A stretch of DNA of 58,915 nt, filler included, from Dugesia japonica (taxonomy: Eukaryota): the NCBI GenBank assembly GCA_001938525.1. It is 6 parts of 6 records of this genome, joined end to end, with 100 filler letters (N's around TTAATTAATTAA, not from the genome) between each part and the next. Parts side by side here need not be neighbours in the genome. Positions count along the whole stretch, not along the records: positions 20,767 to 29,688 come from MQRL01616569.1; 5 more parts are not named here. The stretch is one strand, 5' to 3'. Positions 1,838-52,940 of the stretch are shown here, in pieces (the first letter of the stretch is position 1; the number at the start of each line of letters is the position of its first letter). A program made the translations under genes and the position numbers. Below the pieces are notes generated by a model. That model saw only the letters and a list, made by a program, of their open reading frames with translations, made no database searches and had not been told where the DNA came from.

Positions 1838-1988
1838 CATATTCCTGAAGAAGACAAATGTCGAAAATTTGAATTTCTATAAAAATACATTTTATTTTGA
1901 TCGAAGCTTTTTCTTTATTTTAATGAGATCTGAAATGCGATCAATGGTTAAGTCCAACAATTATTCTACCAATAATTCTTGTAATTAT
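1838..1988 (+). mobile_element. Single arm of a Penelope-like pLTR/retrozyme-type repeat with a minimal hammerhead motif
   Basis: ATTC-CTGAAGA-A-GAC AAAT GTC-GAAA-AT-TT-GAAT at 1841-1874, followed by a TTTTGATCGAAGCT...GTCCAACAATTATTCT tail shared with the 19.5 kb and 28 kb copies. Confidence 0.6.
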
Positions 1989-18900: not shown

Positions 18901-19311
18901 AAAGGGCGTGGGAAAAAGGGCGCATCAAAAAGGCAACCATCAAAAAGGTGACTGGTTTTTTTAAGGTTAATTACATTAATTAAAGGTTAGAAAAAATTAC
19001 ATGAATTGTGAGAAAAATGATGTTGTGAAATCCTATACTTAACTTTAATTAAGATTCAGGAACTACGACATTAAAATTAATGTAAAAATTTTGAGTAAAT
19101 ATACGTTGTTCAGAATTATTTAAATTTTATCTAACCTATTTTTATTAATTTTTTNTAATCTTCAATGAATGTAATTAATGTAATTTTTGCTAACCTTTAA
19201 TTAATGTAAGTAACCTTCTGAAAAAACTAGTCGCCTTTATCGATGCTTACCATTTTTATGTGCGCCTATTTGCATGCGGGCTATTAATGGTTGCCCTTTT
19301 TCACGTCTTTA
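18901..19311. mobile_element. Fold-back MITE with long TIRs and ~15-bp subterminal repeats (MULE-like)
   Basis: AAAAAGG(G)CG-type repeats on the left are mirrored by CGCCTTT/GCCCTTTTT on the right. GGTTAATTACATTAATTAAAGGTTAG is inverted at about 19190-19215. Confidence 0.6.
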
Positions 19312-19533
19312 TTTGAGGATATCCAAATGTTAGCTGATTTGAATTTTGTTTCTTTTGAATCTCCTATTCTATGTTTAATGCTTAAATTGATCTGTATGTT
19401 AATTGATTTTTTANTTATATATTTCACAATTTCTTTNATATTTATAAATTTACTTTTGGATAATTCCTTTAATAACCAGTCTATATTTCAATTGTCAATA
19501 TTACTTTGTTAAACTAATAATTTATATTTTTAC

Positions 19534-19808
19534 AATTGCAATTATTTCGAGAATAATTGTTGGACGTTGATCGTTTTTTAGAATTCATTTAAAATAATAG
19601 CTTCGATCAAAATAAATTGATGTTTTATAGATATTCAAATTTTCGTCAATTGTCTTCAGGAATTTGATATTCCTGAAGACAATTGTCGAAAATTGGAATA
19701 TCTTTAAAACAACAATTTATTTTGATCGAAGCTATTACTTTATTTTAATGAAATCTTCAATGCGATCAATGGTTAAGTCCAACAATTATTCTCGCAATAA
19801 TTGTAATT
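19534..19808. mobile_element. Palindromic (head-to-head) Penelope-like pLTR/retrozyme-type insertion with two hammerhead-like motifs
   Basis: Imperfect palindrome of about 275 bp centred near 19665. The plus arm reads GATATTC-CTGAAGA-CAATTGTC-GAAA-AT-TG-GAATATC and is mirrored on the minus strand. Confidence 0.65.
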
Positions 19809-19996
19809 ATATTAATTTATACCTTATTGATTTAATTGGTTAATTGATCAAATTTACTTATTGTTTTATTTAATTCATCGCAATTAAAATCGAATCAAAA
19901 CGTCAAATGTTGTAATATGTATTTGACTATAAATAGTAAACCATTATCTAATTAATACATTTAACGTATTAAGTAAAATAACTTTTTAAAGACATA

Positions 19997-21163: not shown

Positions 21164-22649
21164 TGTTGGGGTGAAACACTTGAGTTTGAAAAATAAACCA
21201 GCGATTAGGTACCCTTGAAATTTGAAAGAATGTCACAAGAAAGAAAATAAAGAACACAGACAAAAGAATGTGTTAGACCAGTTACCGAAAGTAATAATTA
21301 AAGAAAAAACCGAAACAAAGGAACTAAATATGGGAAAGGATCCGTAACCTAGTGAGTTACAAAGGAAGAAAATAAATGTTGGAAGACAAAAAACGGACGG
21401 AGAGAACAAAGAAAGGAAAATAACGGAAGAAATAATTCATGTAATAAAAGAAAGAAAGTCAAAGGAAATAATCAACTTACAGAAAATAAATTAATTAGTG
21501 AAAGAAAAACAGCGAAATTAAATTAAAGTTAAATCAGGAAAATAAAGAAATGAACAGCAAATTAATATTTTGGAAGAAAATAAAATAAATTATTTATTTA
21601 TTTAAATAAAATAAATCGAACAATTTAAAATAAATTATTTTTAAAGAAAAATAATTATTTCGTGAAAAATGGCAAAAACGACGACTTCTCATGGTGGAAA
21701 AATTAGCAATTTAAAAGATTCTGGTCAAGAAAAAATCAGAGATCTTGAGAATTTAAGTTAAAAAATCGTTATGAGACTCAGAGAAAAGATACAAGGGTTT
21801 GAAGGTTGACCAATAGGTTTGGAATCCAAAAATATCAACCAATAAAAAGAACTCACATGACGTTCAAGCCAATGGAAACGTCAGAAAAGTCGTACAATTA
21901 TAAATAACCAATCAAAGGAATGGGGTGTGAAGAGAAACCGGTATAAATACCGATGTAATTTTCACCAAAATATCTAACTTTTTATCAAGAAAATAACGTA
22001 ATTGAACGGAGATTTTTTAAAGTGAATATTCTTGTTATTCAATTACGGATGCAACGATTTTCGATTTGAACCGAATATGGAAATTTATGGTGGACCCATT
22101 GAATCATTAATATCCACCGAGGAAATGACAATTTAAATCTTTTGCTTGCTCCAGATCGGTATCCAGACCACGTTAGTTTTATTGTTTGTCTTATTTGTTA
22201 AATTAATGTNTAACAAGTGGTGTTTTGATAATTGAATATATTTTCCACTTGTTAAAATCTTGCGTTCTTGATAATTTTAAACCTTAGGGTATGGATTGTT
22301 AAACTAAACGTAGTAATTAACTGAACCCAGCTAAATATGCTTAATTCGAAAAAAGAAAATTTATAATTATTTAGGACTCAACTGACTGATAAAATCAAAA
22401 TCCAATAAAACCGGTTATAAACGGAAAGCTAACAAAATTAATGGTTGATAAGTATGATTTGAGAATCAAGCGAGTGTCATGAAGTAGTAACCCAAATCAA
22501 AGGAATGCGAGTCTGCACTCGGATTCTGAGTCAACGGCTCCATTCCGAAGATCTGGAAATTTTGAAGGACACCAGATTAAAATACTTGGCGGGGTTTTTT
22601 AAGTCCAATTACCCTAGACTTATCCGCCCACTTAGATAAAACCCCAACA
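21164..22649 (+). mobile_element. Solo-LTR-like element, family A copy 1
   Basis: TAAT|TGTTGGGGT ... ACCCCAACA|TAAT (4-bp TSD); CCAAT boxes and GTATAAATACCG at about 21940; homologous to 56420-58743. Confidence 0.75.
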
Positions 22650-24050: not shown

Positions 24051-24345
24051 TTATTCTTACCCTGATTAATATCACCATTATTGTTATTATTGTGACTGTT
24101 TTACATATCCGTAGCGTTAATACTATGGTCAGTAACTTGCTTATGCTTCCAATTACTATTAGTTGTCACTTTGTTGATATTATTATTGTTTTTTATCACC
24201 ATGGTTGTTATTATGTCAGTGAAGTCAATGTCATTGCCCTGAGTATCTCTGCTATATGTAACATATCCGCCGCCATCACCTCAATAATTTCGTTATGAGG
24301 TACACCATTATAGACTCTTGTTATTATCACTATTTTTATAGTTGT

Positions 24346-27300
24346 GGTTAAAAGACTTCAACTTTCCATAACTATTTATTATAACAAAAACTATTTTTTA
24401 ATAATGAATTATTTAAACAAATAATATCATTTAATATTAATAAATTTAAATCTTTATATCAGTTTATAAATGATATATAACTGCGCTCTCTCTCTCTCTT
24501 TAATTTTAATTTTCTTCAGCCATTCAAGTCTTCTGGGTTTAAGCTGTCCTGCATAATCTTTAAGCAAGTGGTGTGTGCTCATAAATTTAATAATTTTGTA
24601 AGGACTTTCATACCTGAAACCTTTTTTCTTTAACATGTGTGGTTCTGCTTTCACTAATACTTTCCCCCTTCTTCAAAATGTCTGGATGTTCGTTTTACAC
24701 ATTCGTATTTGCTTAATCTTTTAGCTACTTTCTGTATATTTTTATGTGCTAGTTTTTTCATTTCTTCGTGTTTCGGATTTCCTTCTTGTGGTAATCCGTG
24801 TAAGACTAGTCTTCTTCCAAAGATAATTTCAAAAGGAAGTAATTTGTCTTAACCTAATTTCGTGCAGCCGTTCTTTATCGTTGTTAACATCATATCTCGA
24901 AGTATTCTAATATTTATTTTTGCTAAACCATTTGATTGATGTTGATATGGGGACGAAAATTCTTGTTGAATCTCAAACTTCTCTGCGAGTGACCGCATTA
25001 ACTTTTCTTCAAATATTTTTGCTCTGTCGCTCAAAAATGATTTTGACTTACCAAAAGATATATCCAGTTTTCCTTTATTGCTTCAACTATCGAAGTTTCA
25101 TTCTGTTTACTTAACGCTACGAATGACACTAATTTACTATGCCTGTCAACCATGACGAGAACATATTTCTTTTTGGTTTTCACTTCTGGAAATTAACTTG
25201 TTCTAGTGGTCCAGATTCTGTTCTTTGAATAAGAAATTCCTTTGTTTGCCAAGTGTACGTTTTACGCATTTTACATATCATACATTTTTATAGTTGATGT
25301 TCTACATTTTTTTGCATATTTGGTCAAAAATAAGTAACATTCAAATACTCCACCAGTTTTTGGCTGCTCACATGACATAACTCATCGTGTGTAAAATCTA
25401 TAAGGTCAAGTATCAATTTTCTTGCCAGTAAAATTCTTTTCTTGTCTCTTTCATTGATAAATAGTATCTCATCATCCAACGCAAACTGTTCTAATTTGGG
25501 AAAATATTTACTTATGGTCACCATTGTGCTCAGATTATTATTTATCATTCCACTTTCAATATATTCAAGGATTTCTCTCGTTATTGGATCATTTCTCTGT
25601 ACTTCTTTAATATGGCTTCTATCAAAGTTTGTTTTGTCTAAAGTGTTGTTTCTTTTAACTAGATATCGTTCCCCTTTTACATATTGATGTATAGTCTGAA
25701 ATTGTGAATAAAGGTGTTCTCCTATCCTTAAAAGTCCATCAGCATTTCCATGAGCTGCTCCTTTTCCAAATTTTAGTTGAAAATTGAATTCTGCTAGATT
25801 TGTTATCCAATTTTTGAAACTGAGAACTAATTGGCTAACTAGTCTTTGTCATAAAAGTCAATGCTTTATGATCCGTTGTTGCTCTAAATTTCTTGTCATA
25901 CAAATAGTGTTTAAAATACATCATAAACTCATGCGGAGCTAACAATTTCTTGCGAGTAACACAATACTTTTTTTTGGGATTGTATAAAGTTCGATAATCG
26001 TATACTATGACCTGTTCCAATCCATTTTACATTATTTGACTCAAAACCAATCCAATTGCTCCAAAACTAGCATTAATATCCAATATCATTTCGCCCCTAT
26101 TATTTGGGAAAGTCCAAATCGGATAACTACACAATTTTATCTTCAAAGATTATCATTATTGTAGGTCCTGTCGTTTCAATGTGATGTGGCATCAGTTTCG
26201 TAAATCCAAGATCAAATTTTGATGCCATAAATATATCTTTGTAAGTTTTTATCATTTTTCATACTTCTTGACTGATATTATTTGAAGTATTAAAGTCATT
26301 TTTTACTTTTTCTGTATTATCAATAAATAGATTTCCATCGTTTGAGTTAATAAAATCAACTTCAGTGATTTTCATTCCGAATAGCTTTATCATATTTGAT
26401 AAATTTTAGATACATATTTCTAACAATTACTACTTCTTTCTCTCTTAGCTTCCCATTCCATTGTAATTTCAGTTTAGTTTTCGCGTTACATTTTTCTCCT
26501 TTTTCAGAAAACACTCCTGCTAGAACAATGTGTGATGATGATAGATCAGGTGATCCAATTCTTCTCCACACATCTGCACTAATGAGTAATATTGCTGTTC
26601 CTGAATTCCATAACATCTCAATGTCATATCCATAGCAACGCATTTAACTCAATTCTCTTTCATCTCTCTTCTGAAACATCTTATCATCGAACATCAATTT
26701 TTCATCTCGGCGTATTTTCTTTGTTATTTCAACCTCACTGAGGAGATGGATGCAGTGGGTTGCTGATCGTTTTTTTAATCATCATCGTCGTGAAGAAACG
26801 TCGTGTATATACTCAATTTTTTCACCACTGTAAAATAACATATCATCTCCTTCTGCAATACATAATATCTTCAGAAATGTAGAATATCTGTTTCGAATTA
26901 ATGGACAATCTCGAAAATTATGACCTTCTTTTCTACAAATTAAACATTAGTCTTTTAATAGACCATTCATTCTTCTATGTCTTGTATCTCCACAGCAAAA
27001 ACATGCTCCCGGTGCTAAAACGTCTTCACGCGGAGGATTCTTTCCTTTGGCTTTAAAATAAAGCTTATTGGTTGTACACTTCATCGAGTATCGAGGAAAA
27101 CTATTATTTTTGGCCTGTCTTTGGGTCTGAATTTCATTTGCACAATACAAATTCTCTTTGAAAACAATTGGCCGATTTCTTGTACTTGGATCGTTTTGAG
27201 TATTCATTCGTGGATGAGGTTTTGAAAACTTTGACTGATAATCATCCTTCTTCACTGTATTTGTATAGCTGTTTTTTACGACATTAACAGAATATGCTGG

Positions 27301-28304
27301 TATCAATTTTATCCAAATTTCTAGCTAATTTTCGTCTGTGAATATCAGTAAGTTCTGGTTGAAGAACAAAAGATTCTTTCAATTTTTTGCTTCTTACACC
27401 ATTAATTAAAAATATTGTTGCAATTTCATCTAGAGATTTTTTACTCGCAAAAACTTTGTTTACTATTTTTCTTACTCTTTACTTGAAATTACGATATTTT
27501 TTAGTTAGGTCTTATTTGATCTTGGACAAAAGTGTTATTTTATCCATCAGTGTCTCTGAAATCATAAATGATTCACGAAACCGTTTTTTGCAGACCTCTT
27601 TCGTCAAAATTACATCTTCTTTGCATTTTTCCACCCATAATTCTTTCGCATCTTGTCTCATTAACATATCAAAAGCAAATGATATCTCTATTTGAATAAA
27701 CACAGCAAATTATTTTGTCTTTTGAATCCATTCATCAGCTGNTTCAGATGAACCCTCGAAAAAACTTGGTTTTGGGATAAGCAATTCTTGTGTTGAAGAT
27801 GGCAGCTTTGCAAAAATAATTTGGCGAACATCTTTTTCTTTTTTCGTCAGTACGCTTATTTTGGCGTGGTCGTCAGTTAAAAGACTTGAACCTTCCATAA
27901 TTATTTATTAAAACAAAAACTATTTATTAATAATGAATTATTTAAACAAATATTATTATTTAATATTAATAATTCATTTAAAATAAAAGCTTCGATCAAA
28001 ATTGTTTTTTTTATATTTGGTATTTGATAGCAATTCGATATTTCGACTAAGTCTTTTTCAAGAATTGACTTTTTGTTGTCAAAAAACAAATTGAAAAGTC
28101 AATTCTTGAAGAAGACTAAGTCAAAATATCGAATTGCTATCAAATACCAAATAAAAAAACAATTTTGATCGAAGCTTTTATTTTAAATGAATTCTNNNNN
28201 NNNNNNNNNNNNNNNNNCCAACAATTATTCTCGCAATAGTTGCAATTGTAAAATAATATTAAGAAATTTAAATCTTTATATCCTTTTATAAATGATATAT
28301 AACT
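24346..28304 (-). mobile_element. Full-span degenerate Ty3/gypsy LTR retrotransposon with the RT core deleted
   Basis: 5-bp TSD GTTGT on both sides. LTRs at 28304-27875 (interrupted) and 24482-24346 with AGTTA...TAAC(T) termini. PBS TGACGACCAC, gag with CCHC knuckles (CFCCGDTRH; CxICRKEGHxxxDC), protease (LWNSGT), RNase H (D.NASFGAIG; TDHKAL), integrase (HDELCH; SSPYQHQSNGLA) and PPT AAAGAGAGAGAGAG. Confidence 0.9.
27970..28253. mobile_element. Palindromic hammerhead-bearing insertion inside the gypsy 5' LTR
   Basis: Absent from the sister 3' LTR and flanked by a duplicated TAATATTAA. The arms read CAATTC-TTGAA(G/A)A-A-GAC TWA GTC-(G/A)AAA-TA-TC-GAATTG on both strands. Confidence 0.7.
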
Positions 28305-28477
28305 GTTGTCATTGACTAATTATTATTGATATGGTGGTTGGATCCCATACCAATCTGTATCCGTAGTACGTTAATATTTAAGCAATAGGTTACTCGTAAA
28401 TTATTCGTCGGGTTTAAGTCTGACCATTTTAAATTAAAGCGAATAACTTTCATGAATTTTACCATTTTTAATTTCAG

Positions 28478-28643
28478 GAATGCCAAGTACCCCACATATA
28501 ATATTCTAAATGATCCGCTATGCGCGAGAGCTAGCGCAAAGCATCAATTGCTTGAACATTTATTGAACCCCAATGACGAAGAACGTCTTGATAAAACCAA
28601 TCTAGCGTGTTTCGCAGATATATTCCTTTTAGAAAACTATTGA
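28478..28643 (+). CDS. Orphan terminal exon or pseudo-exon with weak kinase subdomain XI-like sequence
   Basis: TTTCAG acceptor, then NAKYPTYNILNDPLCARASAKHQLLEHLLNPNDEERL...*. Confidence 0.25.
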
Positions 28644-28879
28644 TGATTTTGATTCTTAACTCGCGTTATTTAATTATTAAATAAAAATTACTATCTATTC
28701 TTGACTTTTTTAACAAATCTTTTAACTGTGCTTTACTTTTTTGAAAAACCTGTGCAACTGTGTTGCTGTACTAGTGCATCACTATTTACCTACTATGTAT
28801 TTTAATGTAAAGATAATAGTAAGTAAATAGTGTTGTACTGGCTTACTCGATTCTAACTATCAAACCATTTATTTGATCT

Positions 28880-29200
28880 AGAAATTTTGGTTGGTTCAAG
28901 CGATTTCAGTCAATTATTTCTTTGAGATTCGTCAGTTTGGGTAATTTTTGAGCAATTTGGTTAGATCTTTCCTCTAGAATGGCCATTGTTGGTGAATCTA
29001 TTGAATCTTTACTCGGTATTGGTCAATTATGGTCAGTACTTTGGGTGATTCATTCAACGTTTTTCTTGCATTAGTCAGTTTGGGTAACTTTTATGTGAAT
29101 TTGGTCAAATTTTTTATCAGTAAGATCAAATCAAGTCAAATATAGTCGATTTGGGTAATGTCGGTCAATTATTTACTCGTTATGGGCAAACTTGGTTTAT
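28880..29200. repeat. Diverged copy of the GGTCAA/TTGGGTAA complex repeat
   Basis: Same motifs (TTTGGGTAATTTT, TTGGTCAAAT) as the 38.8-42.8 kb arrays. Confidence 0.65.
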
Positions 29201-29810
29201 TATTTGCTCACAAGAGTAATTGCAGAATGACTCGAGAATGGCAATTATTACAAATACAAAAATTACAATAAAGAAAGAAATTTAATTCCAATAAAATCAG
29301 TGTAAATTATAATATTAAAAATTAAATATTTAATTAATTAATTTCGCAAAAAGAAAGGTCAATTAGTGGAAAAAGAAGAAGAAACTAATAACTTTGGACA
29401 GGATGATCAGAAAATGGTAGGACAAGAAAAATTGAATAGAAATTAAAGCATTGCCTCCACGAACTTTAGAGTTAATCGAAGATTTCAGAAACAACGTTAT
29501 ATTTCTAAGACAGATAACCGATTCCCAACAAATGGAAAAGAAAGAAATTGCCGAGGACGGTAAGAGTTTTAAAGTGGTTAGAGAAGATTCAATGGCGGTA
29601 ATTAGCAGGAAGATGGTCGAGTACAAAGAGCTCAAATCTAGTTGGGCACAACAAGCACAAAGGATAGCGTATGCAAAGTGGGCAGAAANNNNNNNNNNNN
29701 NNNNNNNNNNNNNNNNNNNNNNNNNNNNNNNNTTAATTAATTAANNNNNNNNNNNNNNNNNNNNNNNNNNNNNNNNNNNNNNNNNNNNAAAATTTATTAT
29801 TTATTTTTCA

Positions 29811-38420: not shown

Positions 38421-38845
38421 AAATAATAATGAATATTTTTGTTTCATTGTTTCAATATTAATTAATGAAATTGATATATTACTTATTGAAATTTGTATGT
38501 AACTTAATCAAATCACTGTGTACTCATGGAAATAATACATATTTTGTATGAAAATGTGTATTTTAGTATACTTTTTAAAATTTTGATAATGCTTGTAAGA
38601 TGTGTGTATATATTAGAATGAAATTAATTTTTATTTTAATGTAATTAATGAAATTTGTTATGTGATAATGAAATAACTCCATCTTTTTATAAACTTTGGT
38701 ATTATTTGTATGAAATTATTATTGAAATTGATAAATTACTTATCAANNNNNNNNNNNNNNNNNNNNNNNNNNNNNNNNNNNNNNNNNNNNTTAATTAATT
38801 AANNNNNNNNNNNNNNNNNNNNNNNNNNNNNNNNNNNNNNNNNNN

Positions 38846-41800
38846 NGTTGGTTTGGGTAATTTTTGGGCGTTTTGGTCAAATATTTTCCTCGGCATTGAT
38901 GATTTTTGGGTGATTTAGGTTAAATTGGTTCAAAATTTCCTCGGTGAGGTTGAATGAGGTCAATTTTTGACTGGTTCAGGTAAAAATTGGTTGAATAATT
39001 CTTCGTGTTTAAGTAGTTTGGGTAAATTTAATTGGATTTTGATTGGTTCTGGTGAATTTGGTCGAAAACTTTCTCGGTGAGGTTGAATAAGGTTGATTTT
39101 TCATTGGTCCAGGTGAATTCGGTCAAATATTTCCTCAGGATCGGTCGGTTTGGGTAATTTTTCAGTGATTAAGTTGAATGTGGTTAATTTTTGACAGGTT
39201 TAAGTGAATTCGGTCAAATATTTCCTCGATGAGATCGGTTTAGGTAATTTTTGGGTGATTCGGTCAATTATTTTCTCNNNNNNNNNNNNNNNNNNNNNNN
39301 NNNNNNNNNNNNNNNNNNNNNNNNNNNTTAGTTGAATAATTCTTCGTGTTTAAGAAGTTTGGGTAAATTTGGTTGGATTTTGATTGGTTCTGATGAATTT
39401 GTTTGAAACTTTTCTAGGTGAGGTTGAATAAAGTTGATTTTTCATTGGTCCAGGTGAATTCGGTTAAATATTTCCTCGGGATTTGTCGAATGCGGTTAAT
39501 TTTTGACAGGTTTAGGTGAATTCGGTCAAATATTTCCTCGGTGATATTGGTTTAGGTAATTTTGGGTGATTCGGTCTATTATTTTCTCAAGATTGGTTAA
39601 TTTGGGATTAACTTTTACGGAAATTCTTTGAAAAAGTAGAATTTGTTTAAATTTTCAAATGTTTTAAAATTACTTTAAACTTTTGTGGTAAATTGGTGAA
39701 ATTAGATCATTTTGTTTAAATTTTACGATTTTTAAAATTTTAAAATCAAATTTTTATGGAATCCCGGAGAACATCTGAAATTTCGAAAATGTTTGAAAAT
39801 TTTTTTATCGAGATTTTTGCATCAATCGATGGAAAATTCGATGGAGATTATTTTTCACAAATAAAAATTTTTCGAAAAAATTATTTTTCATCTTTAGATA
39901 AANNNNNNNNNNNNNNNNNNNNNNNNNNNNNNNNNNNNNNNNNNNNNNNNNNTTTGGGTAATTCGGTCAATTATTTTCTCAAAATTGGTTAATTTGGGAT
40001 GAATTTTTGCGGAAATTCTTTGAAAAAGTAGAATTTGTTTAAATTTTTAAATGTTTTAAAATTACTTAAAACTTTTGTGGTAATTTGGTGAAATTAGGTC
40101 ATTTTGTTTAAATTTTACGATTTTTCAAATTTTAAAATCAAATTTTTATGGAATCGGGAGACCATCTGAAATTTAGAAAATTTTTGAAAAATTTTTTTGT
40201 CGAGATTTTTACATGAATCGATGGAGAATTCAATGGAGATCATTTCTCACAAATAAAGATTTTTCGAAAAATTTATTTCTCATCTTTACATTAAAATATT
40301 ATATCTATTAGATAGAAAATTCTTTGTTGATTCCAAATATATAAATCTAAAAACGCCAAAATTTATCTGGAATGAAATAAATAGGGTTTTGTGGTGAAAA
40401 TTTTCAAAACTCAGAGTTTAGCGCTCTGATCTCTGTCCACAGAGAACTGCTATCGATTCAAATTTAGTATTATTTTACTCAGAAAGAAAAAGTGACTGTA
40501 CAAAGTTAAAATATCGTCTCGGAAAAAATGCGTTCTAACGAAGATATTCGGCTGTCATCTCGGATTTGGTAACTTTTTTCGAAAATTGAAAAAGTATCAT
40601 AAAAATCGTCAAAAAGGTATCTTTTCGACAGAGAATCTTTCACTGTTTTTAAATATGTAAATCTATACTCACCAAACCGTATAGATAAAACGTTATATTG
40701 AAAAAACATGTATTTCATTTTTGAGAGTCTTGGAGGGAATTATGAAATTTGGAAAGGGTAACTTGAATGTAATTATAAATTATTCTATCCAATAGAGAAG
40801 TTTATGTTGAATAAGAAAAACATTGTTACAAATTACCAAACCTTATAGATAAAAAGTTATAAAGAAAAATACAAAGTGTAAAATAAATGGACAATCATAG
40901 GAATCGAACCACCACAGTAGGGGGATAGTGGCGGTCTGGCGCAGCACACATGTAGTACCCCCGCCCTCCGCCGTGACGTAACGAAACATAATCCTAATGT
41001 ATTTAGTCGACGATTTGAATTTGCACACCTATGAGGCAATATTATGTAACTGCGCCAGTATTTTTTATGTGTATTTACNNNNNNNNNNNNNTTTGCACAC
41101 AAATTATGTCATAGATTAATTTCATCGCCGGGAAAATTTACGTAATAGGATTAAGTGGTTTGATTTTTTAATTTATTCTTTAAGTGGTTTGATTTTGTCC
41201 TATGTTTTTAGTTGGCAAAAGTTTTCAGGCCTTTTTAAGCTGTAGATTTTTTAAGGCTTTTTAAGTGGTAACTGTTTTTAAATTTTTCTAATGTATTTAG
41301 TTGGGAAAGTTTTTTAGGCTTTTTAAANNNNNNNNNNNNNNNNNNNNNNNNNNNNNNNNNNNNNNNNNNNNNNNNNNTGCACACAAATTATGTCATAGAT
41401 TAATTTCATCGCCGGGAAAATTTACGTAATAGGATTAAGTGGTTTGATTTTGTCCTGTTTTTAGTTGGCAATAGTTTTTCAGGCTTTTTTAAGCAGTTGA
41501 ATTTTTTAGGCTTTTCTAATGTATTTAGTTGGGAAAGTTTTTTAGGCTTTTTAAACAGCAATATTTTTTAGGCTTTTTAGTTGGGAATTTATTGGTGAGG
41601 TCAAATAAGGTCTATTTTTATTGGTTTTAAGTGGTTTTGTCCAAATTTTATTCGGTGAGGATGAATAAGGTCGATTTTTTGGGTGATTCAGGTGAATTTG
41701 GTCAACTATTTCCTCGGTATTGCTTAGTTTGAGTAATTTTCAGGCGTTTTGGTCAAATGTTTTCCTCGGCATTGATGATTTTTGAGTGATTTAGGTGAAT

Positions 41801-43845
41801 TTGGTTAAAACGTTTCTCGGTGAGGTTGAATAAGGTCTATTTTTGGATGGTTCAGGTGAATTTGGCCAATTTTTTCCTCGGCATTGNNNNNNNNNNNNNN
41901 NNNNNNNNNNNNNNNNNNNNNNNNNNNNNNNNNNNNCCCCCCTCTACGTAATCATATTATTACATAACTGTTTTTAAATTTTTCTAATGTAAATAGGCGG
42001 CGGCACACATTTTTGTTCGTTACATTATTTAATTAATCTTATCGCGAGATTATTACATAACTGTTTTTAAATTTTTCTAATGTAAATAGGCGGCGAACAC
42101 ACAAATTATGTTATGAGATTAATTGCATCAGTGAAATTTTATGTAATAGGATTAACTGTTTTAAAATTTTTCTAATATATTTAGTTAGGAAAGCTTTAAG
42201 GCTTTTTAAACAGCAATATTTTTTAGGCTTTTTAGTTAAGAATTTATTCGGTGAGGTCAAATAAGGTCTATTTTTTATTGATTTTAAGTGGTTTTTGTCC
42301 AAAATTGATTCAGTGAGAATGAATAAGGTTTTTTTATGGATGGTTCAGGTGAATTTGGTCAATTATTTCCTCGGGATCGGTTGGTTTGGGTAATTTTCGG
42401 GCGTTTTGGTCAAATGTTTTCCTCAGGATTGATGATTTTTGTGTGATTTGGGTGAAATTGGTTGCAATCTTTCTTGATGAGGTCGAATGAGGTTGGATTT
42501 TGATTGGTTCTGATAAATTTGGTCGAAAATCTTCTCGGTGAGGTTGAATAAGGTTGATTTTTCATTGGTCCAGGTGAATTCGGTCAAATATTTCCTCGGG
42601 ATTGGTCGGTTTGGGTAATTTTTGGGTGATTGAGTCGAATATGGTCAATTTTGATAGGTTTAGGTGAATTCGGTCAAATATTTCCTCGGTGAGATCGGTT
42701 TAGGTAATTTTTGGTTGATTCGGTCAATTATTTTCTCAAGATTGGTTAAATTGGGATGAATTTCTACGGAAATTGTTTGAAAAAGTAGAATTTGTTGAAA
42801 TTTTCAAGTTTTATTAAAATTACTTTAAACTTTTGTGGTAAAATTGGTGAAATTAGNTCATTTTGTTTAAATTTTACGATTTTTAAAATTTTCTTAATCA
42901 AATTTTTATGGGAATCCGGGAGAACATCTGAAATTTAGAAAATTTTTTAAAAATATTTTTGTCGAGATTTTTACATCAATCGATGGAGAATTCGATGGAG
43001 ATTATTATTCAAAAAATTATTTCTCATCTTTAGATAAAATAATCTTGATTATTAGATAGAGAATGTTTTGCTGATTCTAAATATATAAACCTAAAATCAC
43101 CAATGTTTATCTGGAATGAAATAAATAGGGTTTTGTAGTGAGAATTCTCAAATTTTGAATTTTAGTGCTCAATTTTCTTTGCGTACATAACTCATATTGT
43201 TTAAAATTTAGTATTATTTTACTCAGGAGAAAAAAAAGAAGACTAGAAATTTTTATTTAAAATATTCGGAGAATTAGGAATCTAGGCGAGATTTTATTTT
43301 TGGCATAACGCTGATGCGGGATTTAAAAAATCTATACACTATAAATAACTCTGAAAAAAAGAAGAATCAAACAAGGGTCTCCACAATTATTACTGAAAAC
43401 TTCTTGCTCGATTTGAAGAAAGTTTATCACCCGAAATTCCTAAATCTCTTAATCAAATTTCTCAACTGACACTGAAAAAATTTGTTCGGAAAGTTAAAAT
43501 GTCGTCTCGGGAAAAATGCGTCGTAACGAAGATATTCAGAAATTCAACGTTTTTCGAAATTTAAACATGTATCTCAAAAATGGTCAAGAAGGCATCTATT
43601 TGATAGAGAATCTTTCACTGATTCTAAATATGTAAACTTTAAGTCACCAAACCTTACAGATAAAAAGTAATATAGAAAAACATGTACTTCATTTTGGGAC
43701 TCCGGGAGGGAATTATGAAATTCAGAAAGGGTAAAATTAAAGGGTAAAGGTAACTTGAATTTAAACATCAGAGTATCTATTCGATAGGGAATTTTATTTT
43801 GAGTAGGAAAAACATGGTAACAAATCACCAAATCTTGTCTGGGAC
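38846..43845. repeat. Complex G/T-skewed tandem repeat arrays within a duplicated composite unit (copies at about 38846-40850 and 41580-43845, with a partial extra copy around 39.3-39.9 kb)
   Basis: Recurrent GGTGAATT(C/T)GGTCAAATATTTCCTCGG and TTTGGGTAATTTTT. A shared tail beginning GAAATTCTTTGAAAAAGTAGAATTTG occurs at about 39620, 40010 and 42770; 40500-40845 is paralogous to 43490-43835. Confidence 0.9.
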
Positions 43846-43946
43846 NNNNNNNNNNNNNNNNNNNNNNNNNNNNNNNNNNNNNNNNNNNNNNNNNNTAAAT
43901 CTCTTAATCAAATTTCTCAACTGACACTGAAAAAATTTGTTCGGAA

Positions 43947-46900
43947 TTATTTCAATTTCCTTCTACTTTTCAATGTTCTCCTAGCGTTTGCAGCTGCAGC
44001 ACCAGTAGCAGATAAATTCGGGGCATTATTAACACCACTGCTGAATTGAAATAATCCCTGTTGACTTGGATTAAAATTGAATCCTGTTGAATCAGTCGCA
44101 GGATTAGGAAATGTTGTATTGTTGTTTCCTGCTGGAACTGAACTAGAACTTCCAAATTGGAATGGATTGTTGTTTTGAACAACATTTTGAACTCCGAACA
44201 TATTTGATGGTGTTTGGTTGTTATTACTCGGCAAAGAGAATTGCGGAGGGTTTTGATTAACTGTCGGCTGCTGGTGGCTGAAATTCAATTGAGGTGTGCT
44301 GCTGAATGTATTCGATTTTGTATTTTGTGCACCAAACACGCTCATTGGTTGAGTGTTGAATGTAAACGAAGATGAAACCGGCAGTTGTTTCGATGGCTCG
44401 ATTGTTGCTAAAGGAGCGGTTGTAGTGACAGTTTGTATTGATCCAAATATCGTTCCAGAATGACTCGATTGTGAAAGAGAATTATTTCCAAATAGAGANC
44501 TACTTGATCCGCCGAACTGAGAAGATCCGGGATTGGTAAATAATGATGACGACGATTGTTGCTGTGCAATATTCGAGTTCTGTTCTGTGTTTGATGATTG
44601 GCCAAATTGAAATGTAGAACTTGTACTCGATTTGCCTTCATTGCTCGTTTGTCCAAACAGAACCGCTGGTTTCGAATTCGTATTTCCTGTTGAAATTACT
44701 GTAGAATTCGAAACTTGACCAAAAACGAACGGACTCGGTTTAGAAGTTGACGTTTCTCCGTTATTTAATCCTTGACCAAAAGAAAACGGCTTATCATTGG
44801 ATGAAGAAGTTGAAAACATTGATGATGCATTGCTGGTAGCATTCGACGATTGCCCGAATGGAAACAATTGATTACTAGGAAACATGGTTTTTCCTGAAGA
44901 AATTGTTGTTCCTGTTGCTGTTGATGTTTGAACAATGGAAATTGAGGTGTCCCCCGAACAAGGAACTTGTCCAAATGCGAATGGACTTGTAGTTAACGAA
45001 GATGATGTCGTTAGAGTATTCGAGGTTTGATTGAAATTTGACGTAGACAGTGTAGAGTTTTCTCCGGCATTTGATATATTTCCAAACGAAAACGATTTAC
45101 TGGCAGGAAATGATGAAGATGTTGCTTGTTCGGAATTTGGTAACTTTCCAAATAGAAATGGAGCACCATTTGATGATGTAACTGATGATTTAACTTCCGG
45201 TTCTTTCGGTTGACTAAAAGAAAATGGTTTTGACGATAAACTTGATGTATCAGCACGAGTTATAAGTTCAAAAGATTGATTTGTAGATGCCGTCGAAACA
45301 CCACATGTAGTAGTTATCGGTACTTGTCCAATAGAAAATGCTGTCGATAAAGAGCTCGATTCTGACGTTTTTTCAAAGAACGGCTTTGTTGACAAAGACA
45401 CATTTTTTGTATCTACTGTTTGTCCAAACGAAAGAGGTTTCGATAAAGAGCTTGATTCTGACGAAGGGTTTGTCGAGTCTACTGCTTTTCCAAACGACAA
45501 AGAACTCGATTCTGTATTTGTTCCAAAAGACAACGGCTTTGTTGATGATAATCCAATTGTAGAATTGTTTAATTCTTTATTTGAGTCGACAAATAAACTT
45601 TGTTTGGAACATTTTGAATTTGAGGTTTCCACAGAAGCATTACTTATTTCTAGTGGAGAAGATCTATTAATATTAGAATCCTCGACTTTGGTATTAAATA
45701 TAGTTGATGTTGATGTAACATTAGCGCTGCCACAAGAAACAGGAGTAGAATATTGAGTAGTAATCGAAGATAATTTTGAGAAATCCATTTTTATTTCACT
45801 GGCAGCAAATCCGCTTGATATTGAAGTTTTCTGATGTTTGCTGGAACATTTAGATGTTACGTTTTCCTCAGTACTGTCTAAGGAATTTTCCCTAGGTAAA
45901 TCTTCATTGACATTACTTTTCTCCGTAAATATTGTTTTCTTTGGTAATATTAAGTTACTGGAATTTTTCTTTGAAATATTTCCACAATTACTACATTGCA
46001 ATGATTCCTCGAAATTTTCAGAAAAACAAGTATCGCATCTCCACAATTTATCTGATTTCATATTTACATTTATACGCTTATGATAATCACTTCGTTCTTT
46101 TTCAGAAATTTTTGACTTGAACTGAAATTTCACGGTATCCTCGAGATGGAAAGATAAATATTCTTCATCATTTACTGTCTGAGGTGGCCTAAAAGTAAAT
46201 TCTAAATCCGGACTCGGTGATCTTAGTGGATTAGAAAAATAATCCACTTCAGTGTTTGTTGATATTGATTTTTTCAGCGTTGGAATATTATTAAATTTCA
46301 ATTGATTTGATTTAATTTCGTTTAATTTTGGATAATCATAATTATTATTCAACGATTCTGAATCTAAATCTATATCTTCGACATAGCCCAGACGTTTCAT
46401 TTTTTTAGTGTGTTTCGAACGAATTGGGCCACAATTACTTCGTAAATTATCATTAGATGAACCAGATATTGTTACTGCTTTAATCGGTAATGGTTTTTTT
46501 CCCACTATTGGTGGTATTGGTCTAGAATATGGACTATACGATATTTGTTGCATAGATTTAGGCGAATTTATTATTTTTTCTTTCGCAAGCAAGGTTGTTA
46601 ATTTATCCGCCGCTGTGATAGGAGTTGTTAATTTGTCCAATTTTTCAAGAATTCTCTTAGCTGGTGAACTAATAAATTCTTTAGCATTTTTGAAAGATTT
46701 ATTTGAAATGGGAGAAATAATTTTTTGTGAAACATTTAAATTCCGAGGATATTTAGAATTAATATTCAGAGATATGTCTTCTGTATTTCCCAAATATAAA
46801 CGCTTAGATGAGCGAGGGTGCAGTGAAGATACACCACTTGTAGATACAGAAATATTACTTGTTTCACTGAGTTCTGAAGCAGTATCATTAAAATTATTGT

Positions 46901-47348
46901 AAACACTGAATTTATCTTGTAAAGTATTATTTGGCTTGATAATTCTGGAAGTTGGAAGAGATTTAAGGTCATAATGCAATCTAGCCCTCTTTATTTTAGA
47001 TTCATCTTCCTCCTTGCCAAAAGCTACAGATGCTACACGTCGATTAGAAGTTCTAATAGGTGACAATTTATTATCGAATGGCACTTCAGATACATTTTCT
47101 CTGGCAGTAGAATTGAATGGAAATAGACTTGTTAACGAATCACTCAGTTTTTGAAAAAATGACTAAATAAGAATTATAGTTAAATAAAGTATGAAATTAT
47201 AATAAAACTAATTAAAAAAATATTTAAAAAAAAACATGAACAGTTACTTTATTTTTTGACATATTCAAAATTTAAGTAAATGTGTCGTGTGTTTAAACAA
47301 ATACAGTGCTTTATGTAGAAAAAATAAATTTACCTCTTTTGAACGCAT
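43947..47348 (-). CDS. NUP153: Nucleoporin Nup153-like; exons 47348-47334 and 47162-43947 (about 1076 aa)
   Basis: MRSKE|SFFQKLSDSLTSLFP; SSPAKRILEKLDKLTTP (compare SSTARRILQSLEKMSSP); RanBP2 zinc finger WRCDTC..N...C..C; many FxFG/PFxFG repeats; basic tail ARRTLKSRRKLK. Confidence 0.88.
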
Positions 47349-49577
47349 TTTACAAAATAATATAAATAATATATTTTACAAACAAATTTTTTTAAAATTT
47401 TATAAGTTGGCATTTAAGCTAATAATATAATAATTATTAATTAAATAAAAATGCAATGTAAGAAATCAAAAAATAATTGCAACTTTTACATGAATATAAA
47501 AGATTGAATTCTTTTTTCTTTACAAAAATTCATTATTTGAAAAAACTTTGATAATAAAGTTTATTTTTTTAAATTTTCATAAAACTAAAATTATTTTAAT
47601 AATCCTATTTACCCCAAAATTTAAATGTTTGTTAAAAATAATTTTAAAGCATTATTCTTGAAATTAAATTTTAATTTACATAATGCCATTTATATATCAG
47701 ATATATTATAAATTAGTCATATAAATTAATTGTACAAAGTAAAGNCAAAGATTATTAATTAATGAAATTAATTATTAAATCCAACTAGGCGCTTGTGTTT
47801 GTGGGGCCTAAGGGGGCAACGGATGAGCGGAGCAAATTAGACACATTCTTCATTTTATAACCACGATAAATAACTTTAAAATACCATAAATTTATAGGAA
47901 TTTTATACTTACAAAAACATACTACCAAAATGATCGTGAAAATTTGTTTATTAACCAAAATTTATGAAAAAGAAACTTATCAATTGCTTTCTCAGTCTGA
48001 GTTTTAGGAAAGAACATTCATTATAAATTTTAGGATGAGCGTTAATCTTCGATAAAATTATTTTCTTTGAAATATAGTTAACTGCCTGAAGCATAGCCAA
48101 TTCTAAACAAAATTTATTCATATAGTCACGTTGTAAAAGTTTTTTCCTGATAATTGTTAGTTTGATGAGGACAACCCTAATGGCCAACATTATGAAGATA
48201 CTATCTAGTACCTGCTTACATACTCCATTATTTTTGCATGGTCTAAACTCACCATCTTTATTTACTCGAATGTATTACTGAATGATAACATGAATTGCAT
48301 TCCTCGATTTTGAAAAGAACAATTTTTTTCACTGAAAGTGCCTTTGGATGTAAGGGCTCAAAGTGGTTCACTTGCTCTAACGGCAGATCAGAATCCAACA
48401 TTGATATAAGTTATGCTAAAAACTTAAATTTTGATAATTTTATAATCTGTTTATAAGGTCACATATTTATTAAAAAGAACTCTAGTTAAATAAAATTGTT
48501 TAATTCAATTAATAATATTATTGATGTTTTCAGCGGGTATTTTTTAATTTTGTAAAATTTCTATCCACATAAAAATGAATGTTATATAAAACTTAAAAAT
48601 AAATAAAATTCAAATTAGTATTCATAAAATTTTATAAATATTTTCAATTTTTATTGAAAATAATAATTTGAAATATTTTTAAAATGACAAAAATAATATT
48701 TCCTTTCAATATAATATTTTAAAATTAATGCAAGAATTTTANNNNNNNNNNNNNNNNNNNNNNNNNNNNNNNNNNNNNNNNNNNNNNNNNNNNNNNNNNN
48801 NNNNNNNNNNNNNNNNNNNNNNNNNNNNNNNNNNNNNNNNNNNNNNNNNNNNNNNNNNNNNNNNNNNATATTTTAATCTATTGTATAATATAATAAAAAG
48901 TTTTAATATATTAAAAAATTATGAAAATCTGATATAAATCTGATATAAATCTATTATAAATCTATTATAAATAATCAATAAAAAGTTTAATAAATAAAGA
49001 GGAAAATATATTTCAACAAAATTTTAATTTTCTATGTCATAGATCAAAACTAATAAAACTGAATAATCACATTAGATGAAAATTTTAANNNNNNNNNNAA
49101 GTCAACAACCAGAATATTTCACCTCTAATGCAATTGAATAAAAACTTTTAATTATTTAAATGGCGTCAACACTGATATTTTGTGTTTTTTTATATTATGT
49201 TATTTTTATTCGGAATTTGTTTATAAAAGTTCAAAGATTATTTGGATTTTTTAAAATTTGCAAAATTTAAAATTTATTTGATAACTTTTTAAGTCTTAAA
49301 AGATCATAAAACCTGATAAATATTTCCTAAAAATAAAAAATTAAATTTAATATGAAAATCTTTGAAAATTATATTTAGATTTTACAAAAGCATGAATAAA
49401 TTTACAAATTGGATTTTATTTAAATATTCATGAAAATAATTTTTTGAAATTCTGTGTGATAATCTTTAAATACAATTTTTTTAAAATTTGTATATTTTGT
49501 TAATTTTTATCTAGAATGAATATTACGTATAATGATCAACACTTGATAAGTAGTTATAGTAGTACGATTGAAAGCCA

Positions 49578-49675
49578 GCAGGTGGTTTTCCTAGCCTTAT
49601 GGTTCAAAATCCCCTGTGTGCTTGAAAGCACTCGCTCGCTGGATTTCTCATCATTGGGCTAGGAAAAGCATCTGC
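49578..49675 (-). ncRNA. Structured RNA-like island with type I hammerhead topology and a variant core
   Basis: 20-bp terminal stem. The minus strand reads CCTAGCCCA-ATGATGA-GAAATCC...GGATTTT-GAAC-CA-TA-AGGCTAGG, with an inner GTGCT TTCA AGCAC hairpin. Confidence 0.45.
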
Positions 49676-51111
49676 AGACTTTAAAGTGTACTCATATAAC
49701 TACTTGTTTCATTTTTGTAAAAATAAATCAACAGGTATTTTTTTTAAAATATAAAAAAAGAAAAAATATTTTAAAATTAAATTTTAAATAATAAACCGTG
49801 ATGGTGAATTTAAATCATGATGATTCAAAATATGTATTAAAATCATTTAATAAAAATTTAATTTTATTAAATGAAATAGATTATTTAAATGTAATTCATA
49901 ATAAAATAGTATAGAAATGTTATTCTTTTATTTTTTAATACAGAGGAATTTNNNNNNNNNNNNNNNNNNNNNNNNNNNNNNNNNNNNNNNNNNNNTTAAT
50001 TAATTAANNNNNNNNNNNNNNNNNNNNNNNNNNNNNNNNNNNNNNNNNNNNGAAAATCAATAATTTTACAATTTCAAAATTAAATCAGTTATATAAACAG
50101 CCCAGATATGGTAATGGAATACAGGAAAGATGTTGATTATAAGGAAGCAGATAGAGTGTCGAGAACTTCGAACTTCAAAACAAAACAGAGCACCAAACTA
50201 AGGTTAGCTAACTCTCTGACAAGCTAGATTCAAAGCAAAGAATTAGCTTATGCACTATTTAAGGGATACATAATCATCGGAAAATTTCGGAAAAGAAACT
50301 AGGGCATTCTTAAATGCATTTTTGTTTTCAGGAGGGATATTTCTAACCAACTTATCAACATATTAATTTAGAAGAAGCAAACAAAAACTCTTAGAAACCC
50401 AATAGTATTTAAGAAAGTCAATGATTAAGGAATAAATCTGAATGTCATAAAAATACAAAGATAAGACAGAAAGAACGAAAGGGTGGATGAAGAATGCTGC
50501 AATAGATTTTACATTGTTACATCTAACAAAAATTCTTTCGAATGGTTCAAAACTTTGTTTCTTAGAAAAATGTCTACTATGCTGCTTTAAAAAATATGGA
50601 CGTTTTATTTCTAAAATATTCACATAACAAATACTTAAAACAGACAAATTTATTCGGTATACGAATTTTTGAATTGCTCAATTTAGGACATGATTTTTAA
50701 ACAATGAAATGCTTATTAACTTTTATGTGACATTGTAAATCATGTAAATTTCTTTCAACTATTCCTTTGTATTGAGTACAGTATTTAATTCTGAACTATA
50801 TTTTTGATTAATACGAGATATTTAATAAAATACTTTAGAAAACAATTTAATATTTTAAGTAAAATATCAATAAGTTGTAATTAGTTTTATAATTAATTTT
50901 TTAATTAATAATTAAATCTATATAATTCAATTACTTTGAAAATGACGAAAATTTGTTATATTTAAATACAAAATTAGTTCGAAAAAGAATTTTTTAATTA
51001 TTAAATTAGTAATATTTTTGTAAATAAATACATTAACTTCAAGAACGTTCTTTATGTTTTGTTTTAATTTGTTCAGAATTCAATAAATCGTTATCTTTTT
51101 GTTACTAAGAT

Positions 51112-52940
51112 ATGTTGGTACGTCTTACATGTTAATTAGATGATATCTTTTATAATTAAATAATTTAGCCTGGAGCTCAAATTGTATTGTTAAAAGAGGG
51201 CACTGATACCTCCCAAGGTATCCCTCAAATTATGTCAAATATTACAGCCATTCAATCAATTGCTGAAGCTGTAAGGACAACTTTAGGCCCACGAGGAATG
51301 GATAAATTAATCATAGACGAAAAATGTAAATTAATTTTCTATTTTTAAATTTTTTATTGTATTAAATAGCCAAGGCGACTATCTCAAATGATGGAGCAAC
51401 AATTCTTAAATTGCTTGATGTTGTTCATCCAGTTGCAAGTACTGTTGTACAAATTGCTTTATCACAAGATGATGAAGTTGGAGATGGAACTACTAGCGTT
51501 ATGCTTTTAGCTAGTGAATTTTTAAAGCAGGCTAAATCATTTATTGAAGAAGGGGTCCATCCAGAACTAATTCAGAAAGCCTATAAGAAAGCTGCGAAAT
51601 TAGCTTTGAATTATCTTAATGAATTATCAGTTAAAATTGAGAAAGGAAATGACGCTGAAAGACGTAGTTTATTAGAAAAATGTGCTTCAACTGCGTTAAG
51701 TTCTAAATTGGTTGCAACATATAAAGATTTTTTCTCTAAGCTTGTTGTCGATGCTGTCAGCAGTTTAGATCATTTGCTTCCTTTGGATATGATTGGTATT
51801 AAAAAAGTACCCGGAGGTTCATTACAAGACAGTCAGTTAATTGCTGGTGTAGCATTTAAGAAGACATTTAGTTACGCTGGTTTTGAAATGCAACCTAAAT
51901 CATACAAAAAACCCAAAATTTCTCTTTTAAATATTGAATTGGAATTAAAATCAGAGAAAGAAAACGCTGAAATCAGAGTTAGTTCTGTTGAGGTAATATA
52001 TTAAAAACGTTATCCTAAATTTTAATATTTTAAATTATTTACTAACCAGGAATATCAAAGAATTGTTGATGCTGAATGGCAAATTCTGTATGATAAACTT
52101 GAAGCAATTCATAAAAGCGGAGCTAAAATTGTTTTGTCTAAATTACCAATCGGTGATGTGGCAACACAGTATTTTGCTGATCGTGATATGTTCTGCGCCG
52201 GTCGAGTAACTGAAGAAGATCTTAAAAGAACCATGGCTGCTTGTGGAGGAGCTATTCAGACAACAGTAAAGGATATTACTGATGATACTCTTGGTAAATG
52301 TGAATCATTCGAAGAGGTACAAATTGGTGGAGAAAGGTAACTTGATAAAATTTTTAAGATTTATTGACTTGGTTTTAGATTTAATATTTTTGTTGGATGT
52401 CCCGAAGCTAAAACCTGCACCATCATTCTGAGAGGTGGTTCAGAGCAATTTATGGAGGAAACTGAGCGATCCTTACATGATGCCATCATGATTGTGAGAA
52501 GAGCAATGAAGAATGATGCTGTAGTTGCTGGTGGTGGAGCAATTGATATGGAAATCAGTAAATATCTCAGAGATTATTCCAGAAATATTCATGGTCGAGA
52601 TCAACAATTTATTGGAGCAATGGCAAGAGCATTTGAAGTAATTCCACGACAACTGTGTGAAAATGCCGGCTTTGATGCGACTAATATATTGAATAAATTG
52701 CGTCAGAAACACGCTCAAGGCAAAATTTGGTGTGGAGTTGATATTTTGAATGAAGACATTGCTGATAATTTCGAGGCCTGTGTTTGGGAACCTGCTCTTG
52801 TCAAGTCCAATGCAATTACAGCTGCAACTGAAGCTGCTTGTATGGTGTTGACCTTAGATGAGACAATCCGTAATGCTAAATCAAAAACTCCGGAAGACAA
52901 TAGACCCGTAAAAATGCCAGGACGTGGCAGACCTTGTTAA
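51112..52940 (+). CDS. CCT7: T-complex protein 1 subunit eta; exons 51112-51117, 51169-51325, 51370-51992, 52050-52336, 52379-52940
   Basis: [44 protein letters not shown] and the eta-specific [19 protein letters not shown] and [11 protein letters not shown]; four GT-AG introns of 42-57 bp, all in phase. Confidence 0.97.

Follow-up and report, generated by a model that had tools for sequence, protein, structure and literature searches.

Based on the anatomy of five related sequence arms in a 58,915-nucleotide stretch of Dugesia japonica DNA (the window), we propose, with a probability of roughly 0.7, that the arms are pLTR insertions of a Penelope-like element (PLE), very short and truncated at the 5' end, and that an inverted arm, where there is one, was made during the insertion itself. 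Membership of the PLE order is likely for these arms, but the reverse transcriptase (RT)-endonuclease that defines it was found neither in the window ORFs scanned nor by peptide searches. The proposal draws on features that were observed directly, namely the anatomy of the arms, target duplications, an empty site, high repetitiveness, a sharp outer end and covariation within a hammerhead ribozyme (HHR) motif.

BLASTN and nhmmer searches of the window recovered the arms at three loci, near 1.8, 19.5 and 28 kb, and at the latter two they stand head-to-head, in agreement on both points with an earlier note on this DNA. No sixth arm was found in the window by BLASTN or by an nhmmer profile built from the five; with this profile, which is derived from the same sequences that it scores, the five arms reached 73–154 bits and all seven other rows at most 2.3 bits. 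The arms and the insertions that they make up are as follows.

1836–1999 (element given as 1836–1990), plus strand: 1.8 kb arm, found by BLASTN and nhmmer; a single arm with a complete C3:G8 core and an ATG at 1923.
19527–19812, no strand assigned: 286-bp head-to-head insertion with two full arms and a 5-nt centre at stem I.
19527–19666, minus strand: 19.5 kb left arm (BLASTN, nhmmer).
About 19667–19812, plus strand: 19.5 kb right arm (BLASTN, nhmmer).
27970–28253, no strand assigned: 284-bp head-to-head insertion with a short inverted left arm, a small loop and a full right arm.
27970–28073, minus strand: 28 kb left arm (BLASTN, nhmmer).
About 28098–28253, plus strand: 28 kb right arm (BLASTN, nhmmer), broken by a run of 22 N that leaves part of it unreadable.

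The two fold-backs are unlike each other in their centres and outer ends, the terminal bases differ between the two ends of the 19.5 kb copy, and the 28 kb left arm ends 58 nt before the outer end that the other arms have in common. Three different inner ends occur in the window. For the 1.8 kb arm, an inverted left partner and a target site duplication (TSD) were sought, and none was convincing. A fourth candidate, at 54346–54380 (54356), carries a perfect CUGACGA-stem II-GAAA half-motif preceded by 7 nt identical to the 5' strand of the 28 kb stem I; it was dropped as probably due to chance, as it has no 3' strand of stem I, scores 2.3 bits against the arm profile and lies in a coding-like stretch, and it is possibly a distant relative of the arms. 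Metagenome contigs gave no match to a two-box pattern. A 17-base pattern matched 119 loci in these contigs, all of which were checked with the arm profile; the top score was 19.6 bits, and the matches were treated as chance, none spanning the whole arm among the best 25 of 130 rows.

That the 28 kb copy is a genuine insertion, as had been claimed, follows from comparison of the two LTRs of a decayed retrotransposon (126 of 136 aligned bases identical), one of which was hit while the other contains the empty site.

24345–24484, no strand assigned: sister LTR, lacking 27970–28253 and containing the empty site at 24432–24440.
27877–28305, no strand assigned: LTR hit by the 28 kb insertion, from comparison with the sister LTR.
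27961–27969, plus strand: left copy of the 28 kb duplication, 9 bp perfect and up to 12 bp with one mismatch.
28254–28262, plus strand: right copy of the 28 kb duplication, from the sister LTR comparison.
19518–19526, plus strand: left copy of a perfect 9-bp direct repeat at the 19.5 kb fold-back.
19813–19821, plus strand: right copy of the same repeat.

The sequence TAATATTAA flanks the 28 kb insertion on both sides and is present once at the empty site. The match continues to 11 of 12 bases, and base 27970 agrees with the empty site, not with the arm; the LTR family in public contigs has C at row 24441, and the sister LTR and the left junction have T. Since the first "insert" base matches the empty site rather than the arm, a duplication of 10–12 bp is more parsimonious, and it probably has this length, with a 2-nt microhomology at the left junction; the earlier figure of 9 bp would then be the length of the perfect match. 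The repeat at 19.5 kb was absent from the earlier note and was found here, at boundaries that were picked by a scan of nearby positions and deviate by no more than a base from where the other arms predict the end to be. TSDs were measurable at two sites only, each 9 bp when perfect and reaching 11–12 bp with one mismatch. In public contigs, no joint jumping the whole 28 kb insertion occurred among the best 15 of 467 joints.

The window has a G+C content of 27% and is animal DNA with the host genes CCT7 and Med27 plus decayed transposons. The hit element (24345–28305) is a minus-strand decayed LTR retrotransposon with short LTRs (~140 bp), many relatives in public contigs and some RNA reads; to its right lies a high-copy, RNA-covered repeat (29149–29688) containing an open frame of 102 codons that has no Pfam match. 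Nested complex direct repeats of 45–560 bp, repetitive in public contigs, occupy 38800–43850 and 28885–29200, one family having an outlier downstream of the LTR. Immediately to the left of the 19.5 kb insertion, 18901–19310 holds a second fold-back, unrelated to the arms, in which several inverted pairs are combined with short direct repeats in subterminal position; it resembles a MITE or a DNA element of the Foldback type. An inverted repeat at 49548–49705 (arms of 65 nt, 77% complementarity, 28-nt spacer) is probably another small MITE. A partial mariner-type transposase remnant (PF01359, score under the curated cut-off) lies at 55502–56050, and two dispersed repeat pairs in inverted orientation, at 72–75% identity, link 22468–22619 with 56458–56612 and 21560–21756 with 58199–58394. 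CCT7 (T-complex subunit eta, 51366–52940; identity at most 83% to the relatives listed) consists of long ORFs separated by very short gaps, which suggests small introns. A tree of one CCT7 exon with 33 of 120 listed hits sets the sequence loosely beside two flatworm rows, without starred support, so that the tree speaks only for an animal, probably an invertebrate. A minus-strand ORF of 1071 codons (43947–47162), Ser/Thr-rich with FG-like repeats and no Pfam match, resembles a nucleoporin of the Nup153 type.

At its inner end each arm starts with stem I, a 7-nt core, an extra A, a 3-bp stem II closed by a G-C pair and GAAA, after which come two bases, U-H and the second strand of stem I. The extra A, between A9 and G10.1, was seen in three of the five arms and is obscured in the other two by a 3-nt deletion; the G10.1-C11.1 pair is present in all five rows. 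The following motifs were delimited outside the 19.5 kb locus, where both HHRs lack the same 3 nt.

1838–1879, plus strand: minimal type I HHR of the 1.8 kb arm, complete C3:G8 core, one stem I mismatch.
28029–28069, minus strand: minimal type I HHR of the 28 kb left arm, core complete in its U3:A8 variant with G12 kept, predicted cut after 28037.
28098–28138, plus strand: minimal type I HHR of the 28 kb right arm, core broken by a U3-G8 wobble and A at position 12, predicted cut after 28130.

Complete cores are therefore seen in two of five arms (1.8 kb and 28 kb left) and broken ones in three, the loss of G12 in the 28 kb right arm and the 3 nt missing at 19.5 kb affecting positions that matter to a hammerhead core. 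The 28 kb left core is counted as complete because U3:A8 is a natural variant according to excerpts of Cervera and de la Pena 2014 (PMC4209133), a paper on minimal type I HHRs in the pLTRs of metazoan PLEs; the earlier count of four damaged cores falls to three on the same ground. A search with motif models, which had been suggested as a check, came out divided. A minimal-HHR descriptor passed three of the five arms, compared with a mean of 0.01 and a maximum of 1 in 200 resampled windows, a significance that is somewhat overstated as the descriptor was loosened after the arms had been seen; Rfam gave no hammerhead match in the window, and its three weak miRNA-type matches to the hairpins were under the gathering scores. 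The isolated HHR folds at 28 kb are weak (-4 to -5 kcal/mol), and for the 1.8 kb and 19.5 kb left segments the HHR fold is not the minimum free energy (MFE) structure.

Changes on both sides were found in 4 of 13 pairs, affecting stem I, C3:G8/U3:A8 and the dimer helix, and 89% of 65 cells are paired vs. 21–48% in slid controls. The covariation score was reached by 9 of 500 shuffles, a figure that is not a probability; the five rows come from two subfamilies and represent at most about four events. The helix III tetramer would be the most telling case, as it is palindromic in both subfamilies (AUAU in the two 28 kb arms, AAUU in the other three; 100% paired), which is what folding as a dimer requires. 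Compensatory changes, an extra nucleotide between A9 and G10.1, the G10.1-C11.1 pair and a palindromic helix III tetramer are the four hallmarks of PLE minimal HHRs in the excerpts of PMC4209133, and all four seem to be present in the arms, the first of them on at most about four events. Together with the descriptor matches, this supports the earlier assignment to PLE-type minimal type I hammerheads: the features that can be tested in sequence are largely present, and cleavage is a prediction.

The inner halves of the arms are 65/68 identical within the 28 kb locus and 52/58 within the 19.5 kb locus, compared with 39–40/58 between the loci, and the inner arms of each fold-back have private defects in common, which argues that both were copied off one template or were homogenised later. 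The outer half of the 19.5 kb left arm is closer to the 28 kb right arm (62/65) than to its own partner (68/79), while the outer half of the 19.5 kb right arm is closest to the 1.8 kb arm (82/89). The 19.5 kb left arm, whose inner half groups with its own partner and whose outer half groups with the 28 kb right arm, is therefore a mosaic with a switch near an invariant box, and such an arm would require a template switch, a second template or conversion.

Each of the four full arms ends in an ATG-started frame that is open to the end, at 28 kb as follows.

28187–28253, plus strand: open frame of 22 codons that begins with ATG and reaches the sharp outer end, a candidate start of the PLE ORF plus tail.

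This makes doubtful the earlier description of the family as non-coding. The candidate ATG lies about 50–57 nt after the predicted cut site, and the distance from cut to outer end is 110–123 nt in the four full arms and 67 nt in the 28 kb left arm; the extension beyond the common part is one-sided (58 nt) at 28 kb and two-sided at 19.5 kb. Indels after the ATG measure 6 and 3 nt, and those before it 4 and 11 nt. There is no synonymous bias, non-synonymous codon differences exceeding synonymous ones in five of six pairwise comparisons and equalling them in the sixth. Searches with the arm peptide, which are weak tests with about 22 real residues, revealed no parent protein: the first gave one candidate and none at E<=10, and the single match of the second was an unrelated laminin-G/PKD repeat protein. 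No RT or GIY-YIG domain linked to the arm occurred among the 14 of 29 long window ORFs that were scanned against Pfam. The autonomous PLE partner that the earlier note had proposed to look for was therefore found neither in these ORFs nor in the peptide searches.

Evidence at the level of the family comes from public runs compared with 24100–29688 only, as Logan contigs of two runs, X1 (guessed to be DNA) and X2 (kind unrecorded). The summed depth in three element bins was 85,000–220,000 vs. 9–21 in flanking unique bins in X1 and X2, and as contig depth is not copy number, this supports only that the element is very repetitive. Among the best 24 of 4051 loose-end rows, 225 (X1) and 236 (X2) contigs end at 28253 and at least 144 in each run at 28254, with unlike, AT-rich flanks (agreement 0.45–0.48). 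Since the contigs stop here and their flanks differ, several hundred separate insertions appear to have one sharp outer end in common. Loose ends at 28012 and 28149–28153 were considered as truncations and dropped, because they coincide with the points at which two inner subfamilies diverge. Short palindromic junctions without an HHR, leading from 28002 to 28162 with 3 or 10 letters between, were also found; at most other joints listed (best 15 of 467) the intervening sequence is unread, and most of these may be copies of the other inner subfamily.

Both fold-backs are near-perfect hairpins, with folding z-scores of -23.5 (19.5 kb) and -27.3 (28 kb), and none of 200 shuffles at either locus was as stable. 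The earlier prediction that the transcript folds back into dsRNA is supported by this, provided that both arms are transcribed. Because the HHR fold can be imposed on the 28 kb fold-back RNA only at a cost of about 49 kcal/mol (-85.2 vs. -133.9), a transcript across both arms would be a plain duplex with the HHR fold masked, the masking hairpin amounting to 134–146 kcal/mol. The idea of a ribozyme facing out on each strand suffers accordingly, as the two cannot both work in a full fold-back transcript, in which the antisense arm pairs with the HHR. Poly(A) reads of X22 were 87–126 deep over the element bins in each direction and absent from an adjacent unique bin, and 88% of the mapped X22 reads continue into unlike sequence. 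No pile-up of RNA read starts or ends was seen at the predicted cut sites in two RNA runs at about 100x depth. This does not discriminate, since the same absence of RNA-seq read ends at the HHR cut site is reported, in excerpts of Frangieh et al. 2024 (PMC11167929), for PAc, the Poseidon element of Anolis carolinensis.

Several published systems resemble the arms in part, and the comparisons that follow hold for the excerpts of the papers cited. The Cercyon-type minimal HHRs of Schistosoma mansoni (PMC4209133) likewise have a vestigial, palindromic helix III and an extra nucleotide before stem II, and Schistosoma HHRs in the same paper have G10.1-C11.1, the U3:A8 variant and thousands of dispersed, heterogeneous motifs; like the fold-backs, they include opposite-strand pairs 100–700 bp apart, ascribed there to what are probably truncated PLEs. 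Stem II is 3 bp here and 7–8 bp in the Schistosoma families, whereas stem I is 6–7 bp here and 4–5 bp there. In Adineta vaga (Arkhipova et al. 2013, PMC3846280), Pen2a_Av and its relatives show a head-to-head inverted pLTR with a palindromic junction, and the pLTRs, as may also be so here, have TSDs of 8–10 bp, AT-rich targets and solo copies; Pen2a has a 9-bp TSD and a pLTR plus tail that covers the first 22 codons. The inverted pLTR in Adineta, however, adjoins a full or long element, whereas only two ends are present here, copy number is low there and high here, and the one-sided extension is 31 nt there and 58 nt here. PAc (PMC11167929) shares with the arms AT-rich targets and 3' ends fixed at roughly 100 nt past the HHR, in addition to the lack of read ends at the HHR cut, but has its start codon inside the HHR, whereas the candidate ATG here lies past the predicted cut. 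Animal non-LTR retrozymes (PMC7229834; bioRxiv 10.64898/2026.07.22.740005) are, like the arms, short, carry a type I HHR and are probably PLE-derived and PLE-mobilised; they form head-to-tail tandems with mostly canonical HHRs and circular RNAs, in contrast to the single or head-to-head arrangement and minimal HHRs found here. MITEs and fold-back DNA transposons (PMC8969392) match the fold-backs in shortness, long inverted arms, high copy number and 9-bp duplications, but not in the unequal mosaic ends, the single-arm copy, the variable centres or the ribozyme motif. Retrozyme and MITE each fail on a defining feature: head-to-tail tandem units are present at none of the three loci, and matching terminal inverted repeats do not occur at both ends of every insertion, although the two TSDs are compatible with a fixed length of 9 bp. 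The PLE combination of a fixed 3' end, 5' truncation and an inverted, 5'-truncated copy at the 5' end is found.

We infer a PLE parent, a priming site and a snap-back step, and picture their interplay as follows. The arm would be the pLTR end of the parent, composed of the minimal hammerhead, a leader of about 55 nt and the first ~22 ORF codons up to a fixed point; helix III, formed from the palindromic tetramer, would require a second copy of the HHR in the parent RNA. A PLE protein would cut AT-rich DNA with a stagger of about 9–12 nt, and reverse transcription would start at a fixed internal site about 110–125 nt downstream of the HHR cut, creating the sharp outer end. In the excerpts of PMC11167929, PAc starts internally, downstream of the HHR, at AT-rich cuts, with internal initiation shown in vitro and HHR cleavage not needed. 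The cDNA would end early, either within about 30 nt upstream of the HHR or downstream of it, and could then be joined straight to the target, giving a single arm as at 1.8 kb. Alternatively, it could fold back or switch template and be copied outward; the product would be a head-to-head pair, and its second arm could either end prematurely, as at 28 kb, or reach full length, as at 19.5 kb. The inversion might arise by self-priming, as proposed in the excerpts of PMC3846280, or by priming from both target ends, a route suggested by the extension of both strands by PAc. Fold-backs would then be insertion products, mostly new each time, and the ribozymes passengers that decay afterwards.

The combination of a fixed outer end with a variable inner end appears to favour such a PLE origin, and so do the hammerhead hallmarks, the closer likeness of the inner arms within each fold-back than between loci, and the clean 28 kb duplication beside a left arm that lacks its outer 58 nt, since a transposase would need the missing part. 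The in-frame indels and the ATG frame may be counted on the same side by analogy with the pLTR plus tail of Adineta Pen2a. On the other side stand the absence of linked RT or GIY-YIG sequence from the window ORFs scanned and the peptide searches, an ATG frame without synonymous bias, two perfect duplications of 9 bp and two fold-backs of about 285 bp, as a MITE would have, and also the missing Rfam hammerhead, covariation that comes from two subfamilies and the lack of a read-end pile-up. The mosaic 19.5 kb left arm would speak against a simple snap-back, unless there was a template switch or later conversion.

The nearly equal lengths of the fold-backs (284–286 bp) could also mean that each one is transcribed and re-inserted whole, as a non-autonomous element dependent on a PLE, with the outward pLTR ends as cis signals. 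The earlier note had likewise described a ~280-bp fold-back family moving as a unit, a description that fits poorly with centres and ends that differ, a single-arm locus and a 28 kb left arm that is 58 nt short. According to the excerpts of PMC3846280, nothing beyond the pLTRs is needed in cis for mobilisation in trans, and PLEs that are putatively non-autonomous have been described (PMC8557442). The two HHR-less junctions have a contig depth of 27–33 vs. about 6 for single-copy contigs, but palindromic contig words count twice, and a depth of 30 may equal about two copies. Family sequence is present in the X22 poly(A) reads, but the 88% that run into unlike sequence look as if embedded in host transcripts, and the 134–146 kcal/mol hairpin masks the HHR. 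The 238 and 283 contigs that leave the 28 kb sequence at 28012, like the 19.5 kb left mosaic, suggest that the mosaic arm type may be a subfamily. With neither centre nor left end common to the two fold-backs and a single arm at the third locus, we consider this explanation unlikely. A bolder form of it, to which we allow a small but real chance, is that the fold-back multiplies as a unit to thousands of copies as a PLE pLTR pair with unlike ends and swappable modules, that an inner (ribozyme) and an outer (ORF-start) module are joined at the conserved box, and that it spreads by PLE priming at both ends or by capture by a DNA transposase with 9-bp TSDs. No description of such a unit was found in the open-licence papers that were searched.

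Mutator-like transposases make 9-bp duplications, and an ordinary or PLE-derived MITE moved by a transposase of this duplication length, the HHR being a relic or irrelevant, would account for the perfect 9-bp duplications at both two-armed loci, the long inverted arms, the sharp end in hundreds of contigs, the very high repetitiveness and the AT-rich targets; the short HHR-less palindromes could be internal deletions. We regard it as decidedly unlikely, for the 28 kb left arm lacks its outer 58 nt and nevertheless adjoins the duplication, itself better read as 10–12 bp with a 2-nt microhomology, the 19.5 kb copy has unlike terminal bases at its two ends, and one locus has a single arm. Nor would a MITE explain why the HHR stems covary or why helix III is palindromic. 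That the hammerhead likeness arose by chance in an AT-rich repeat would agree with the lack of an Rfam hammerhead match, with isolated folds that are weak or not the MFE, with the three broken cores of five and with the perfect half-motif at 54356 that has no second stem I strand, but it would demand a very remote coincidence in the face of three descriptor matches where 200 resampled windows average 0.01, paired changes on both sides of stem I, C3:G8/U3:A8 and the dimer helix, and a position and orientation as in a pLTR.

The arrangement as such is already described in print, in the opposite-strand pairs reported in excerpts of PMC4209133, and an origin of the arms as truncated PLE insertions would place this genome among the animal genomes already known to be strewn with fragments of PLE ends. 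On this reading, hairpins of the kind are best annotated as PLE ends and not as MITEs or microRNA precursors, for which Rfam gave only the weak matches above. If the hairpin does move as a unit, it would be a link between retroelement ends and the origins of MITEs. As a MITE born of a retroelement, it would also supply, across the genome, long hairpin RNA directed against the element that it came from. Tiny insertions with two arms and clean junctions, in their hundreds to thousands, offer good material on how PLEs come to be inverted head-to-head, by self-priming or by priming from both target ends, and products such as the mosaic copy at 19.5 kb can tell these models apart.
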